NCBI RefSeq assembly: GCF_024502345.1
Contig: NZ_JALDNN010000001.1
Length of the DNA stretch: 64,000 nucleotides
DNA from: Escherichia coli
GTDB taxonomy: Bacteria > Pseudomonadota > Gammaproteobacteria > Enterobacterales > Enterobacteriaceae
Reading direction: 5' to 3' (one strand)
Shown: positions 1 through 16,651 of the stretch, piece after piece
Position numbering within the stretch: position 1 is the stretch's first letter
Layout: each line of letters opens with the position of its first letter
The notes under the pieces: model-generated
Databases searched by the model: none
Seen by the model: the letters and a program-made list of their open reading frames with translations, nothing else
What the model was told of the DNA's origin: nothing
Made by a program: the position numbers and the translations under genes

Positions 1-744
1 AACCAGCATCCGGCGCAGGGCAGACGCACGACGTGGCACGCGCAGCGGGCCTGGCAGTACACCTTCGGTGTTCATCCCGCGATCGATACATGCCTGCATG
101 GTTTGCCAGACATGCGCGAAATACTCGTCGATCTCTTTCTTGCTGTGCAGCGCCAGTTCGTTCTGCATAGCGAGACCAGACAGCGAATAGCCGGTTTCAT
201 TACAGTACGCGAGCAGTTCGGTGGCAGATTTGAACGGATACGGCACGCTCACTTCGTTGGCAGCATCCTGACCAAAGTGTTCTTCATCGACGATAAAACC
301 GCCGCCGATGGAATAATAAGTTTTGCTGTAGACGACTTCATCGCCGTTATAGGCGTGGATTTGCATACCGTTTTCATGCAGCGGCAGGTTGCCGTTATGA
401 AAACGCATCCCGTTGTCGCGCGGGAAATCCACTTCATGCCGTCCCTGTGCCAGCAGCAGACGTTCGCGCTCTTCTACGTCGCGAATAAAACCGGGAATAC
501 TGTCGATATCCACGGTGGCAGGTTCGTTACCTGCAAGACCCATAATAATGGCGATATCGGTGTGGTGGCCTTTACCCGTCAGCGACAGTGAACCATAAAC
601 GTCCACGGCAACGCGAGTAACGCTATCCAGTAAGCCTTTTTCGACCAGATCATCGACGAACTGTTTACCCGCCTTCATAGGCCCTACGGTATGGGAAGAT
701 GAGGGACCAATCCCCACCTTAAACATGTCGAATAGACTAATCAC
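1..744 (-). CDS. sdaA: L-serine dehydratase 1, N-terminal 248 codons; gene continues beyond window start
   Basis: Reverse-strand translation from GTG at 744 gives MISLFDMFKVGIGPSSSHTVGPM...; AGGAG 8 nt upstream; frame stays open to position 1. Confidence 0.88.
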   Translation of the reverse strand, partial: MISLFDMFKVGIGPSSSHTVGPMKAGKQFVDDLVEKGLLDSVTRVAVDVYGSLSLTGKGHHTDIAIIMGLAGNEPATVDIDSIPGFIRDVEERERLLLAQGRHEVDFPRDNGMRFHNGNLPLHENGMQIHAYNGDEVVYSKTYYSIGGGFIVDEEHFGQDAANEVSVPYPFKSATELLAYCNETGYSLSGLAMQNELALHSKKEIDEYFAHVWQTMQACIDRGMNTEGVLPGPLRVPRRASALRRMLV

Positions 745-927
745 GATAATACTCCTGACAAGGTGACTGGACTTCCAGTAACGAACTAATAACAGCGCAT
801 AGTGTAAGAGGGAACGCGGCGACTGGCTTAACTATTCACATGAATTAAACTAATCAAAAACCGCGATTTAACTAATATTGCGATGATTGTCTCAAGTAGT
901 GTTTTGTAGATGTAAAGATAAGTATAG

Positions 928-1506
928 TCAGGGTTTCACACCAATTTGCAGCGCCAGCTCACGAATTATGCCTGCGGTCATTCCCCATACAAAATACTGT
1001 TCGTACCAGGACAGCCATACCCGATGTGAATCGCCACGGCGGTAGATATCTAAAGGGTGATAACGACCCAGATGTAATGCCTGGGCGAGCGGCATTTCAA
1101 ACACCGCCGAGACTTCATCTTCACTGGCGCGATACGGCAGATCGGGCGGGATAATGCCGACCACTGGGGTTACCTGATAGCCAGTTACGCTATCGACGGG
1201 CGGCAGCACGCCGATAACTTCAACGGCGGAAGGTGGTATAGCGACCTCTTCTTCAGCTTCGCGCAGCGCGGCGGCGATAACTGATGCGTCCGTGTCATCG
1301 ACTGCACCTCCAGGGAATGCCACTTGTCCAGCGTGTTTACGCAGATGAATTGAACGCTGAGTCAGCAACAACCCCGGTTGCGGTCGACGGACGATGGGGA
1401 TTAACACGGCAGCCTGACGATGATTTAGGGTTTCCCGGTTAATTTGCGGGCGCAAAAGTTGAAAGCGCGATAAAAAATCATCAAGCGTCAGGCTACGGTA
1501 TTCCAC
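928..1506 (-). CDS. nudL: Nudix CoA pyrophosphohydrolase
   Basis: 192-aa ORF with Nudix box ([22 protein letters not shown]); position between sdaA and pabB. Confidence 0.88.
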
Positions 1507-1509
1507 GTC

Positions 1510-2871
1510 TTACTTCTCCAGTTGGCGTAATATCTTATTAACTTTATCAAAAGTTTCCTGATATTCCGCTTCTTCCTGGCTATCGGCGACAATTCCACCG
1601 CCCGCAGAGCAGTATATTTGTCCGTTAATGGCAGTCAGCGTGCGGATAGTAATGCTGGTATCCATGTTGCCGCAAAAGCTCAAATAGCCAATGCTGCCGC
1701 ACCAGGCATTACGTCGCTGCGGTTCCAGTTCGTCGATAATTTCCATAGCCCGTACTTTCGGAGCCCCGGTTATTGAGCCACCAGGAAAAGCTGCGCGCAG
1801 CAGATCGCTGGCGTGTAACTGTTCTGGTAGTCGCGCCGTTATAGTGCTGACCAGATGATGCACGGCAGGGAAGGGTTCCACCACGAAGAGCTCTGGTACT
1901 TTTACCGAACCGGCTACGGCAACACGACCGATATCATTACGCATTAAATCGACAATCATCAGATTTTCGGCACGATCTTTCGCTGAGTTCGCCAGTTTTT
2001 CTGCTTGTTTGCTATCTTCCTGAGGATCGGGCAGGCGTGGTAGCGTGCCTTTAATCGGGCGGGTCTGGATTTCACTATTATCACAAAGAATAAACCGCTC
2101 TGGCGAAAGGCTTAAAATTGCACCCTGTTCAAGACGTAAAAAAGCGCTAAATGGCGCGCGGTTGGCCTGATTAAGCTGAAGGAATGCCTGCCATTCATCG
2201 CCAGAATAGGTCGCATGAAAACGCTGGGCGAGATTCACCTGATAGCAATCACCGCTGTGCAGATATTCCTGTACCAGGCGAAATTTTTCGCCGTACTGCT
2301 CGCGGGTCATATTGGATTGCCAGTCGGAAGTGAGCGTGAAATCTTCCTGCGGCGAGAATTGCTGGCTTTCCAGCCAGGCCCGACGGGCATTGACATCATT
2401 ATGACTCAGCAAAGAAACTGTATGACGCTGGTGGTCGACAATGAGCGCCCAATCGTAGATACCCACTGCCATATCCGGCAGAACGATATCTTGTTCCGCA
2501 ATTTCTGGCAGTGACTCAAAACGGCGGCCCAGATCGTAGCCAAACAACCCCAGTGCGCCGCCCTGAAATGGCAAATCTTCGTTATGCGTTGGGCGAATGT
2601 CTGCGCGATCCAGCACCTGCTGGAGCACCTGTAGCGGGTCATCAGTGGTCGTTGTGCGTTTTTCGCTTTCACTAACAATGGTTTCTTTACCTAAAGTGGT
2701 TAAAGTGCAAATCGGATCGGCGACCACAATATCAAAGCGGCTATACGGATGATCGGCATAGCCGGAGTGTAAAAGCATCGCCCACGGCAGGTGGCTTAAG
2801 CGGGAGAAATAAAATTCAGCGGCGTCCTGACGCCAGGGTAAAGTAATCACAGAGGGAGATAACGTCTTCAT
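1510..2871 (-). CDS. pabB: aminodeoxychorismate synthase component I
   Basis: 453-aa ORF, anthranilate/ADC synthase family (PIKGT, GGGIVADS motifs). Confidence 0.92.
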   Translation of the reverse strand: MKTLSPSVITLPWRQDAAEFYFSRLSHLPWAMLLHSGYADHPYSRFDIVVADPICTLTTLGKETIVSESEKRTTTTDDPLQVLQQVLDRADIRPTHNEDLPFQGGALGLFGYDLGRRFESLPEIAEQDIVLPDMAVGIYDWALIVDHQRHTVSLLSHNDVNARRAWLESQQFSPQEDFTLTSDWQSNMTREQYGEKFRLVQEYLHSGDCYQVNLAQRFHATYSGDEWQAFLQLNQANRAPFSAFLRLEQGAILSLSPERFILCDNSEIQTRPIKGTLPRLPDPQEDSKQAEKLANSAKDRAENLMIVDLMRNDIGRVAVAGSVKVPELFVVEPFPAVHHLVSTITARLPEQLHASDLLRAAFPGGSITGAPKVRAMEIIDELEPQRRNAWCGSIGYLSFCGNMDTSITIRTLTAINGQIYCSAGGGIVADSQEEAEYQETFDKVNKILRQLEK

Positions 2872-2944
2872 CAGTCCTGACTCTACTGGCTATGTGCCGG
2901 GTAGCATGAAATAATTAGCGCCAACAATTTAGCAGGAGTTAACA

Positions 2945-3124
2945 ATGTTTGCAGGTTTACCTTCACTCACCCATGAACAGCAGCAAAAAGCTGTCGAGCG
3001 GATCCAGGAACTGATGGCACAAGGGATGAGCAGCGGCCAGGCAATCGCGCTGGTGGCAGAAGAGCTGCGTGCCAACCACTCCGGCGAGCGAATCGTGGCG
3101 CGTTTTGAGGATGAAGACGAGTAA
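2945..3124 (+). CDS. yoaH: UPF0181 small protein, 59 aa
   Basis: ATG at 2945, translation [59 protein letters not shown]; below ORF-track length cutoff. Confidence 0.8.
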
Positions 3125-3182
3125 CACACTAATCCGTATCGATTTCGTTATAGAAGCCGATGATCATTTGATTGTGAGAAAA

Positions 3183-3215
3183 AGGACGCTTTTTATATGT
3201 GATTAAAAGCGTCCT
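3183..3215. terminator. bidirectional stem-loop between convergent yoaH and yoaC
   Basis: aggacgcttttt ... aaaagcgtcct inverted repeat flanked by A/T runs. Confidence 0.5.
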
Positions 3216-3302
3216 GACCCATTTATGCTGATATAAATTTAACTCAGACCAGTGCTTTTAGTTCTTCCTGCATATATGTTGAAAAGTATTCAGGATTTTT
3301 AA

Positions 3303-3602
3303 TCACAGAACGTTCACCTGTCTCCATTTTTTTGCCCATCCAACCATTTTTTCCGTGAACCCAGGGTTCCAGCCTTCCTGGTCAGCTCGCGCCGTAATAT
3401 CAGCGGCACTCGCGGGTACTCCCAGTTCTTTTAAATATTTAAAGATTCCCTTCGCCGTGCTTTCATTCATCGAACTTGGTGTTGGCGCTGATACATCCAT
3501 GGCACCAATGAAATCCAGGGCTTTATCTATTACAGCAGGCATATTCTTATCCTTAAAATTAACCATGTTATCGATAAGGCTATATATGACCTTAATTTGC
3601 AT
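3303..3602 (-). CDS. yoaC: DUF1889 family protein
   Basis: 99-aa ORF; conserved position. Confidence 0.78.
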   Translation of the reverse strand: MQIKVIYSLIDNMVNFKDKNMPAVIDKALDFIGAMDVSAPTPSSMNESTAKGIFKYLKELGVPASAADITARADQEGWNPGFTEKMVGWAKKWRQVNVL

Positions 3603-13980: not shown

Positions 13981-14340
13981 ATGCTGCAAATCCCACAGAA
14001 TTATATTCATACGCGCTCAACACCTTTCTGGAATAAACAAACTGCGCCTGCCGGAATATTCGAACGTCATCTTGATAAAGGAACGCGCCCGGGGGTTTAC
14101 CCACGCCTTTCCGTTATGCATGGGGCGGTCAAATATCTCGGCTACGCTGATGAACACAGTGCAGAGCCTGATCAGGTGATCCTTATCGAAGCGGGGCAGT
14201 TTGCGGTGTTCCCTCCAGAAAAGTGGCACAACATTGAAGCCATGACTGACGATACTTATTTCAACATTGACTTCTTCGTGGCTCCTGAAGTCCTGATGGA
14301 AGGTGCGCAACAACGGAAAGTCATTCATAACGGGAAATGA
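13981..14340 (+). CDS. yeaR: DUF1971 protein
   Basis: 119-aa ORF. Confidence 0.85.
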   Translation: MLQIPQNYIHTRSTPFWNKQTAPAGIFERHLDKGTRPGVYPRLSVMHGAVKYLGYADEHSAEPDQVILIEAGQFAVFPPEKWHNIEAMTDDTYFNIDFFVAPEVLMEGAQQRKVIHNGK

Positions 14341-14343
14341 ATC

Positions 14344-14526
14344 ATGGGTAAAGCAACGTATACCGTGACCGTCACCAATAACAGCAATGGCGTTTCTGTC
14401 GATTATGAAACAGAGACGCCGATGACTTTGCTGGTGCCAGAAGTGGCGGCTGAAGTGATAAAAGATCTGGTGAATACCGTGCGTTCTTATGACACGGAAA
14501 ACGAACATGATGTTTGTGGTTGGTAA
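14344..14526 (+). CDS. yoaG: DUF1869 small protein, 60 aa
   Basis: ORF 3 bp downstream of yeaR, implying co-transcription. Confidence 0.8.
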   Translation: MGKATYTVTVTNNSNGVSVDYETETPMTLLVPEVAAEVIKDLVNTVRSYDTENEHDVCGW

Positions 14527-14673
14527 TTATCACTGATCGTTGATGGCGTAATTTCTGCGCCATCGCAAAAAAATCCTCCGTGATGCTCGTCACAAATCTT
14601 GCCCTCCCGATGTTGTGCTATGCTTTTTATCAGCGACTAACCCGCTAATGCAAAACAGATAAGTGAGGAAACA

Positions 14674-14922
14674 ATGGGCATTCTGTCATGGATTATTTTT
14701 GGGCTTATTGCCGGTATTCTGGCGAAGTGGATCATGCCAGGTAAAGATGGTGGTGGATTCTTTATGACTATCCTGCTGGGGATAGTCGGTGCCGTAGTCG
14801 GCGGTTGGATCAGCACGCTGTTTGGCTTTGGTAAAGTCGATGGCTTCAATTTTGGCAGCTTCGTGGTTGCCGTTATTGGTGCGATTGTCGTGCTATTTAT
14901 CTACAGGAAGATTAAAAGTTAA
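14674..14922 (+). CDS. yeaQ: GlsB/YeaQ/YmgE family small membrane protein
   Basis: 82-aa glycine-rich hydrophobic ORF. Confidence 0.88.
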   Translation: MGILSWIIFGLIAGILAKWIMPGKDGGGFFMTILLGIVGAVVGGWISTLFGFGKVDGFNFGSFVVAVIGAIVVLFIYRKIKS

Positions 14923-14935
14923 CGCTTAAATTGCA

Positions 14936-14970
14936 CAAAGGCTGCACACAGGCAGCCTTTGCTATTTTTT
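14936..14970 (+). terminator. rho-independent terminator after yeaQ
   Basis: caaaggctgc / gcagcctttg stem followed by T-run. Confidence 0.7.
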
Positions 14971-14980
14971 AGAGGTGACG

Positions 14981-15055
14981 TTACCACCATCCCAGCTCAG
15001 TGCCGAGTACGACAATAATCGCCACACCCATCATAATAATCGTTGTTTTTTTCAT
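14981..15055 (-). CDS. yoaJ: 24-aa small membrane protein
   Basis: Read by eye: MKKTTIIMMGVAIIVVLGTELGWW; GGAG 7 nt upstream of ATG. Confidence 0.7.
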   Translation of the reverse strand: MKKTTIIMMGVAIIVVLGTELGWW

Positions 15056-15057
15056 CT

Positions 15058-15156
15058 TTATGCTCCCGGGGCAGCATAGCCGCCAATAAAAAACCATGCT
15101 AAAAATACGACCGCTGTAATGAAGATTACAACCGGAAAAATAATACCGATTCGCAT
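15058..15156 (-). CDS. yoaK: 32-aa small membrane protein
   Basis: Read by eye: MRIGIIFPVVIFITAVVFLAWFFIGGYAAPGA; immediately downstream of dgcP. Confidence 0.65.
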   Translation of the reverse strand: MRIGIIFPVVIFITAVVFLAWFFIGGYAAPGA

Positions 15157-15188
15157 GTTATCACCAATCAAAAGGATGTGAATACGCC

Positions 15189-16214
15189 TCAGGAATGTAG
15201 CGCTGGATGCGCGACAAAAGGTGTTTTCTGTTTGTGTTTTTTCTCCTGATACATCGCGATATCGGCAGCATGCAGGGCACTGTCTGCATCGGTCGTTTCA
15301 GGATCGACTTCTACTATGCCAAGACTGGCACCGGGATAATACAAATCAACATCACCTAAGTGATATTCTCCACGTATTTGCTGTTGAATACGTTCTCGCA
15401 GCGACGAAATATCCGCATTCTCGTTGTTTAGTGAAACAACCAAAAACTCATCACCACCGAGACGACCAATAACTTCGCCATTTTGCTGGAGCGTATTAAG
15501 GCGCTCGCCAACCTGAATGAGAAACAGATCGCCACTATTATGACCAAAACGATCATTGATTAATTTGAAGTTATCCAGATCGATAAACGCGATCATTATC
15601 TTATGGTTAAGATGCCGGGCGAGGGAAAACAGTGTTGTCAGATTTTCAAAAATCGCCCGCCGATTCGGTAGCCCGGTTAACGAGTCGGTATACGATTGCG
15701 CAATCAGCGCGGCATTGGCTTCGCGCAGCTGTTCAACCAACGCCTCTTTTTGAATATATTGTGCAATCAGTCCGGCGAATAACTGTAAAACCTGTTCCGC
15801 GCGTTCACTCCACTGGCGCTTCTCACTGCTGGCGGCGCAAAGCGTGCCATAGAATGATCCATCCGGTAAGTGAATTGGCGTGCTCAGAAATGTGGTGATG
15901 CCAAGATTGCGTGCCGCAATACAGTCGCCCCAACGGTCAGGGACTTCATCGCTGAAAAAGCAGTTTTCATCAATGGCGCGTTTGCATAACGAGTAATCCC
16001 ACGAGACGGTAAAATTCTCCGGGATGTGCATTTTCTGGCTGTTACGGGCAAACATAATATGCTGCAGGCGCGCTTCGACATCCACTTTGGTCAGGTAGGT
16101 TGATTCCATATCAGTGACCATTTCCAGCATCTCCAGAAGCTGTCGGACCAGACTTTCCAGTGACTGTTCTTTGGCAAGGGATTGCGAGACGCGGGCGATA
16201 ATCTGATCTGACAC
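15189..16214 (-). CDS. dgcP: diguanylate cyclase, GAF-GGDEF
   Basis: 341 aa from GTG at 16214 (GGAG upstream); intact GGDEF at 15445..15459. Confidence 0.88.
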   Translation of the reverse strand: MSDQIIARVSQSLAKEQSLESLVRQLLEMLEMVTDMESTYLTKVDVEARLQHIMFARNSQKMHIPENFTVSWDYSLCKRAIDENCFFSDEVPDRWGDCIAARNLGITTFLSTPIHLPDGSFYGTLCAASSEKRQWSERAEQVLQLFAGLIAQYIQKEALVEQLREANAALIAQSYTDSLTGLPNRRAIFENLTTLFSLARHLNHKIMIAFIDLDNFKLINDRFGHNSGDLFLIQVGERLNTLQQNGEVIGRLGGDEFLVVSLNNENADISSLRERIQQQIRGEYHLGDVDLYYPGASLGIVEVDPETTDADSALHAADIAMYQEKKHKQKTPFVAHPALHS

Positions 16215-16396
16215 GAAACAACTCCAGGATACGGCGGGTAAATGCTGATTATTTAATCTTTGCAGGCATGATAAAACATCACCAACAAAGATGAAACAAG
16301 ACGTAATATGTTTTGAGTGAATGTAATAAAAATAGTGCTGCAAAACAAAACGATACCGCGATACTCTAAGCGTAGATAAATGAGTGAGATCAATAA

Positions 16397-16651
16397 ATGA
16401 AAATTATCAGTTTTGCTTTGCCTTGCTTGCTGGTCCTGGCTGGTTGTTCAACCTCTTCTCAGCCAGAAGCACCTAAACCGCCGCAGATTGGTATGGCAAA
16501 TCCGGCGTCGGTCTATTGCCAGCAGAAGGGCGGGACGCTCATTCCAGTGTCGACAGCGCAAGGGGTCAGCAACAATTGCAAATTACCGGGCGGTGAAACG
16601 ATTGATGAATGGGCATTGTGGCGACGGGACCATCCGGCTGGTGAAAAATAA
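16397..16651 (+). CDS. yoaF: DUF333 lipoprotein
   Basis: 84-aa ORF with lipobox LAGC. Confidence 0.8.
   Translation: MKIISFALPCLLVLAGCSTSSQPEAPKPPQIGMANPASVYCQQKGGTLIPVSTAQGVSNNCKLPGGETIDEWALWRRDHPAGEK

Follow-up and report, generated by a model that had tools for sequence, protein, structure and literature searches.

The window analysed here is a stretch of 64,000 nucleotides from Escherichia coli (RefSeq assembly GCF_024502345.1, contig NZ_JALDNN010000001.1), in which the diguanylate cyclase gene dgcP is followed on the minus strand by the genes of two very small proteins, yoaK and yoaJ, and then by a hairpin and the convergent gene yeaQ. In the order of minus-strand transcription, the features are:

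15189–16214, minus strand: dgcP (yeaP, b1794), which opens the unit and encodes a soluble diguanylate cyclase of the GAF-GGDEF type (Pfam and RefSeq)
15157–15188, minus strand: dgcP-yoaK spacer of 32 nt, carrying the yoaK Shine-Dalgarno element GGTGAT (15165–15160) and free of terminators
15058–15156, minus strand: yoaK (b4676), 32 codons plus TAA, encoding a single-helix small membrane protein
15063–15067, minus strand: yoaJ Shine-Dalgarno element GGGAG, within the terminal Pro-Gly-Ala codons of yoaK and 7 nt before the yoaJ ATG
14981–15055, minus strand: yoaJ (b4675), 24 codons plus TAA, encoding a single-helix small membrane protein
14936–14961, not assigned to one strand: GC-rich hairpin of 10 bp, probably common to the convergent yoaKJ and yeaQ transcripts
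14674–14922, plus strand: yeaQ, the convergent neighbour outside the unit (Pfam PF04226, Transglycosylase-associated / GlsB-YeaQ-YmgE family, and annotation)

The DgcP protein shows a GGDEF domain (140 bits) together with GAF_2/GAF in Pfam. Its gene ends with a TGA codon at 15191–15189, and the 32-nt spacer GGCGTATTCACATCCTTTTGATTGGTGATAAC leads to the ATG of yoaK at 15156. The yoaK frame runs on the minus strand to the TAA at 15060–15058 and encodes MRIGIIFPVVIFITAVVFLAWFFIGGYAAPGA (32 amino acids); after a gap of 2 nt (AG, 15057–15056), the yoaJ frame begins with the ATG at 15055 and ends with the TAA at 14983–14981, encoding MKKTTIIMMGVAIIVVLGTELGWW (24 amino acids). The hairpin at 14936–14961 begins 19 nt past the yoaJ stop. 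A first-pass annotation, which was made by reading the sequence alone, had reported two minus-strand ORFs of 24 and 32 codons, 2 nt apart, on the 3′ side of dgcP, and those coordinates are confirmed here. Its description of the ORFs as lying back to back is right with regard to their adjacency but not in the divergent sense, as the two are arranged in tandem, head to tail; likewise, the sizes were correct, but the 24-codon ORF was named first, while the 32-codon ORF comes first in transcription.

Both frames were identified at the level of protein families. The product of the 32-codon ORF matched the NCBIfam model NF033821 (YoaK family small membrane protein) over positions 1–32 of 32 with 69.1 bits (E = 1.8e-19), and that of the 24-codon ORF matched NF011343 (protein YoaJ) over positions 1–24 of 24 with 60.4 bits (E = 1.1e-16); the curated equivalog cutoffs of 32 and 54 bits, respectively, are thus passed by both peptides. 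Neither peptide was matched in a search of our local copy of Pfam-A, although a model named PF28021:YoaK appears among the precomputed domain labels of a contig index. No family for YoaK, for YoaJ or for the phage copies described below was found in PHROGs. In comparison with E. coli K-12, furthermore, the coding sequences of yoaK and yoaJ in the window are nucleotide-identical to b4676 and b4675 of MG1655, while the flanking 1.4 kb differs from MG1655, which makes a different E. coli strain probable. The slot between dgcP and the convergent yeaQ is the same in the RefSeq feature tables of strain 88-3493 and MG1655, and the two ORFs are labelled yoaK (“YoaK family small membrane protein”) and yoaJ (“protein YoaJ”) in all E. 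coli records listed. With the same coding sequences, lengths and neighbours (dgcP upstream, yeaQ convergent), the genes in the window are the K-12 genes. Also, of 5426 complete E. coli genomes searched by megablast, 5418 contain the stretch 14900–15260, with a coverage of at least 80% in 5398.

We therefore regard it as almost certain that the two ORFs are the known yoaK and yoaJ, encoding single-pass inner-membrane peptides at the distal end of a dgcP-yoaK-yoaJ unit. These small membrane proteins reportedly go back to the work of Hemm, Storz and Rudd, namely to Hemm et al. in 2008 and 2010 and Fontaine et al. in 2011. The first-pass annotation was right in treating the ORFs as real protein-coding genes but did not recognise them as genes that had been named and validated before; reading of the sequence alone nonetheless sufficed to find genuine genes as short as 24 and 32 codons. 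As yoaK and yoaJ are already known and annotated, the only new material presented here is the survey of the genomic contexts of the YoaK family.

With respect to transcription, dgcP, yoaK and yoaJ lie on the same strand with spacers of 32 nt and 2 nt, and a terminator scan of the minus strand found no terminator-like site between dgcP and yoaK, an arrangement that fits an operon of the three genes. The dgcP-yoaK spacer measures 32–47 nt wherever yoaK follows dgcP, the window being at the lower end with 32 nt. In OperomeDB, yeaP-yoaK-yoaJ appears as a newly called RNA-seq operon (PMC4620388). The suggestion made earlier from position that the small genes are co-transcribed with dgcP is accordingly supported by the short and conserved spacer, by the lack of a terminator-like site in between and by the published operon call. 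At the other end of the unit, the hairpin at 14936–14961 was called by the same kind of scan as a terminator for the plus-strand yeaQ; folded as minus-strand RNA, it gives −21 kcal/mol (z = −2.4), and in E. coli its T-run is good on the plus strand and weak on the minus strand. An equivalent arrangement of A-tract, hairpin and T-tract is found 3′ of yoaJ in nearly all orthologous loci. The hairpin is probably a bidirectional terminator serving both yoaKJ and yeaQ, and the dgcP-yoaK-yoaJ transcript would end at this structure in common with that of yeaQ.

No RNA family was matched at E ≤ 1 in a search of Rfam with both strands of 14300–16500. As a separate observation, loci of Enterobacter, Lelliottia and Pseudenterobacter (L009–L021) have in common a short inverted repeat, CCGTACACTCTACGG, that is conserved in the dgcP-yoaK spacer; it lies within the first ~20 nt past the dgcP stop, is absent in Escherichia, and, having no T-run, is not an obvious terminator.

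Alternatively, yoaK-yoaJ might be mainly an independent unit that is transcribed from its own promoter, located within the 3′-terminal part of dgcP, and not by read-through from the dgcP promoter. Reported expression patterns lend themselves to this idea: DgcP is described as being under vegetative control and expressed fairly strongly in every growth phase, with a lower level in stationary phase (PMC5635695), whereas YoaJ is cited, in a passage of PMC12542507 referring to Hemm 2010, as induced by stress and in stationary phase and as up-regulated by diamide. These patterns fit each other poorly, which hints at some dgcP-independent regulation of the small genes. (A dependence of dgcP on RpoS was considered and set aside, as PMC5635695 reports vegetative control.) There is also a sigma-70-like match, namely TTCACA-16-TAACAT with an upstream TG at 15182–15155 on the minus strand. 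As a promoter of yoaKJ, however, this match was rejected because its −10 hexamer overlaps the start codon of yoaK, so that no translatable yoaK mRNA would be made, because genera other than Escherichia do not conserve the hexamer, and because the scan performed at the level of chance, with fewer promoter-like sites than shuffled sequences predict (2 found versus 3.5 expected). At 32 nt, and likewise at up to 47 nt in the other loci with yoaK behind dgcP, the spacer is, moreover, too short for a promoter, and RNA-seq gives a single operon of three genes (PMC4620388). An independent yoaK-yoaJ unit is hence considered unlikely, and transcription of the two genes as the distal part of the dgcP unit is preferred.

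The signals for translation in the dgcP-yoaK-yoaJ unit are also well conserved. The yoaK Shine-Dalgarno element GGTGAT (15165–15160) lies 3 nt before the ATG and fits the extended anti-Shine-Dalgarno sequence of 16S rRNA; GGTGA or GGGGA is found at the equivalent place in 23 of 24 yoaK-bearing sequences, the remaining one (L021) having GGTAA. The yoaJ element, in the form of GGGAG, GGGGC or GGGGG, is kept in most loci with both genes. A Shine-Dalgarno element had been noted before for one of the ORFs; it is present, but both ORFs have one. The junction of yoaK and yoaJ is 2 nt in Escherichia and Citrobacter and 0 nt in Enterobacter and Lelliottia, and the more distant loci L028 and L037/38 have stop-start overlaps (ATGA/GTGA). 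Because the yoaJ Shine-Dalgarno element sits in the last three codons of yoaK and the junction is always tiny, translation of yoaJ would probably be coupled to that of yoaK.

Several database “proteins” (P0001, P0002, P0013, P0018, P0022 and P0050) are read-throughs of YoaK or fusions of YoaK with YoaJ, and their frame shifts map to runs of G (GGG) and A (A7) where yoaK meets yoaJ (about 15070–15045 in the window). These entries are probably homopolymer errors in assembly or sequencing, with natural slippage as a less probable source.

Both peptides are strongly hydrophobic with one stretch of membrane length each, as expected from the earlier prediction of a single membrane helix in either product. 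The GRAVY values are 1.88 for YoaK and 1.22 for YoaJ, and the top 17-residue Kyte-Doolittle windows reach 2.98 and 2.26, respectively; at 32 and 24 amino acids, the two are small membrane proteins in the sense of at most 50 residues and one membrane-spanning hydrophobic stretch. In Table S1 of PMC10470546, TMHMM segments are tabulated for both YoaK and YoaJ, and the experimental topology, attributed there to Fontaine 2011, is N-in/C-out for YoaJ and dual for YoaK. The same study shows that purified RseP cuts YoaK and YoaJ in vitro but that the results in vivo are inconsistent, and the two are called “class II” substrates (PMC10470546). Chromosomally tagged YoaK has been seen on immunoblots at a low level, and YoaK is among the more weakly expressed of the first-found small proteins (10.1101/511675). 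According to these papers, therefore, YoaK and YoaJ are translated and oriented in the membrane; yoaK and yoaJ are both given as genes of unknown function (PMC9769844).

Short and very hydrophobic single-helix peptides would also be in keeping with type I toxins of the Hok/Ibs/Ldr/TisB kind, held under an antisense or cis-encoded small RNA, and the prophage copies of the YoaK family described below adjoin HicAB and HipA modules. Several points nevertheless make this reading very improbable. Neither strand of 14300–16500 contains an Rfam family of antitoxin small RNAs, a test that a novel RNA would escape, and the antisense promoter signal does not exceed chance. The genes follow an enzyme gene within a sense operon and have ordinary Shine-Dalgarno elements, and the chromosomally tagged protein accumulates during normal growth (10.1101/511675). 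In the available portion of the RseP study (PMC10470546), furthermore, toxicity is noted for Hok proteins but not for YoaJ or YoaK.

In order to compare the two genes among species, we gathered 26 loci by anchoring on DgcP, with one genome per species and seven genera (Escherichia, Citrobacter, Enterobacter, Lelliottia, Pseudenterobacter, Kosakonia and Symbiopectobacterium). Intact yoaK was found in 23 of the 26 loci, always with 32 codons, and intact yoaJ in 25 of them, with 24 codons (25 in Kosakonia) and either ATG or GTG as a start. No frame-breaking indels in yoaK or yoaJ were found across the dgcP-anchored loci; such indels, which had been named in advance as evidence against the genes, are absent from all 24 copies of yoaK and all 26 copies of yoaJ (25 loci plus the window). 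Conservation with a bias toward synonymous substitution had been proposed as a check, and the orthologous loci do show this bias. Variable columns at the first, second and third codon positions number 11, 8 and 30 of 31 in yoaK and 13, 9 and 21 of 23 in yoaJ. The pooled dN/dS by the Nei-Gojobori method was 0.050 for yoaK (24 sequences) and 0.142 for yoaJ, both values being approximate, as they were pooled from pairwise comparisons in which synonymous differences are close to saturation (pS ~0.61). When the same nucleotides were read in the other two frames as off-frame controls, the ratios exceeded 1 or stops appeared. Purifying selection on both the yoaK and yoaJ frames is thus clear, although towards the 3′ end of yoaK the embedded yoaJ Shine-Dalgarno element, and not the protein, may account for part of the conservation seen.

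Open frames this short are common, with 76 ORFs of at least 20 codons overlapping the surrounding 3.5 kb, and the length of yoaK and yoaJ alone is therefore within chance; it is the conservation across species that lifts them above it. The view that the ORFs are non-coding chance frames in the 3′ untranslated region of dgcP, which the abundance of 20–40-codon ORFs and the lack of a model for either peptide in local Pfam would allow, is vanishingly improbable and was already refuted by the conservation analysis, given indel-free frames over seven genera with third-position bias and low dN/dS (0.05 and 0.14), the failure of the off-frame controls, the matches above the curated NCBIfam cutoffs, the reported detection of tagged protein (10.1101/511675) and the absence of an Rfam family here.

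Exceptions to the paired arrangement were also noticed. Kosakonia cowanii (L023) and Enterobacter sp. EA-1 (L027) have yoaJ without yoaK downstream of dgcP, indicating that the pair of yoaK and yoaJ is not obligate. In Symbiopectobacterium (L024), both yoaK and yoaJ have been lost.

We then searched 1.84 billion representative proteins with a profile of 17 YoaK sequences. Only 51 matches were obtained, 12 of them at E ≤ 1e-10, and several were frameshift read-throughs or YoaK-YoaJ fusions. The genomic context was checked for eight divergent but intact members of the YoaK family, and these fall into two settings: three are located directly 3′ of a GGDEF gene (L028, L037/38 and L040), and five, all in the immunity regions of prophages, directly 3′ of a repressor gene of the cI type, recognised by HTH plus Peptidase_S24 or by Phage_CI_repr. 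In the cyclase setting, L028 and L037/38 resemble the dgcP locus, with a yoaJ-like ORF overlapping the yoaK stop. The GGDEF protein of L040, on the other hand, is a MASE5-GGDEF protein with 32% identity to DgcP, confined to the GGDEF domain, and is thus non-orthologous; this locus is the single example of an association with a cyclase outside the dgcP locus. In L040, the YoaK-family ORF (2537–2635) directly follows the MASE5-GGDEF cyclase gene without yoaJ, and beyond it come a hairpin resembling a terminator and a dCache-GGDEF gene in convergent orientation.

The ORFs of the prophage setting (L029 3001–3105, L030 3001–3099, L031 3001–3111, L035/L036 2501–2602 and L039 2501–2650) have genes of CII, Cro, YdaS/YdaT, KilR, YdaE, HicAB or HipA in their neighbourhoods, and yoaJ is absent. 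In lambdoid and Rac-like (pro)phages, the YoaK-family ORFs behind cI-type repressors have 32–36 codons. By tblastn against a phage collection, we also found a YoaK-family ORF in the coliphages HK106, mEp234 and mEp506, where the GenBank records have no annotated feature for it. In the immunity region of HK106, this ORF (L034 1562–1660) is flanked by cI and hicA and precedes the Timm terminator annotated there; its peptide shares 63% identity with E. coli YoaK across 30 residues. All of the phage-context peptides exceed the NCBIfam cutoff for YoaK, and RefSeq labels prophage copies as YoaK family in six E. coli genomes. Across both the cyclase and the phage contexts, M1, P8, A15, W21, F22 and Y27 are invariant, and G4, F7, G26, A28 and P30 are nearly so. 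YoaJ, in contrast to YoaK, was confined to the dgcP context in our survey. A search of the literature for a link between YoaK and prophages found no paper.

The slot occupied by the YoaK-family ORF in HK106 and mEp234, after cI and before the annotated Timm, is the same as that of rexA-rexB in phage lambda, which are lysogen-expressed genes between cI and Timm. The peptide itself differs from RexA and RexB, being a single helix of 32 amino acids with an unrelated sequence and with no known exclusion phenotype. The parallel with rexA-rexB concerns the phage relatives and does not extend to yoaK and yoaJ of the window.

As for function, AcrZ, MgrB, MgtS and CydX are characterised small membrane-protein regulators whose partners are AcrB, PhoQ, MgtA/PitA and cytochrome bd, respectively. 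YoaK and YoaJ resemble these regulators (named in 10.1101/511675 and PMC10470546) in having at most 50 amino acids and a single transmembrane helix, in being encoded in or near operons and in having been detected with epitope tags. They differ in that no partner, and no phenotype, is known for YoaK or YoaJ, whereas AcrZ, MgrB, MgtS and CydX have identified partners. By analogy, we infer that YoaK and YoaJ may bind and modulate a larger membrane protein. The leads available from the genomic contexts are that YoaK stands beside two architectures of cyclase and in a lysogen-expressed slot behind cI, and that YoaJ occurs only with dgcP. A partner in the c-di-GMP network, as would be the case if the soluble DgcP were recruited to the membrane or controlled there, is the leading guess because YoaK repeatedly adjoins diguanylate cyclase genes, two of which are non-orthologous; we offer it tentatively, as a possibility that falls well short of being probable.

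The prophage copies, which have neither a cyclase nor yoaJ nearby, indicate that neither DgcP nor YoaJ is needed for YoaK to be of use, and they favour a conserved membrane target in the host over a strictly DgcP-specific role of YoaK. An equally speculative proposal is that YoaK might serve as a transferable module of one helix, directed at a conserved inner-membrane target of the host and recruited both behind cyclases and behind prophage cI genes, with YoaJ as a later addition at the dgcP locus. The recruitment behind cyclases would then cover the GAF-GGDEF and MASE5-GGDEF architectures, and the phage YoaK would be made in the lysogen. If this were true, the placement in phages would suggest a role of the phage copies in lysogenic conversion or superinfection exclusion, and a membrane role linked to c-di-GMP would be suggested for the chromosomal YoaK.

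Two minor points on the phage loci are also worth recording. In the Klebsiella phage ST974-OXA48phi18.2 (L033 1980–2099), the YoaK-family ORF is annotated as “CI transcriptional regulator” (39 amino acids), which looks like a mis-annotation; the neighbouring HTH gene of 131 amino acids, labelled “putative repressor Cro”, is more likely to encode the actual repressor. In HK106, furthermore, the sequence GGCGGATTAAGGGTGATG (L034 1485–1515) comes after the stop codon of a lambda-type cI, and it matches the 3′ end or the immediate downstream region of different repressor genes in L031, L033 and L035. This match suggests a mosaic junction, at which the small ORF may have stayed in place, along with the region upstream of it, when the cI gene was swapped.
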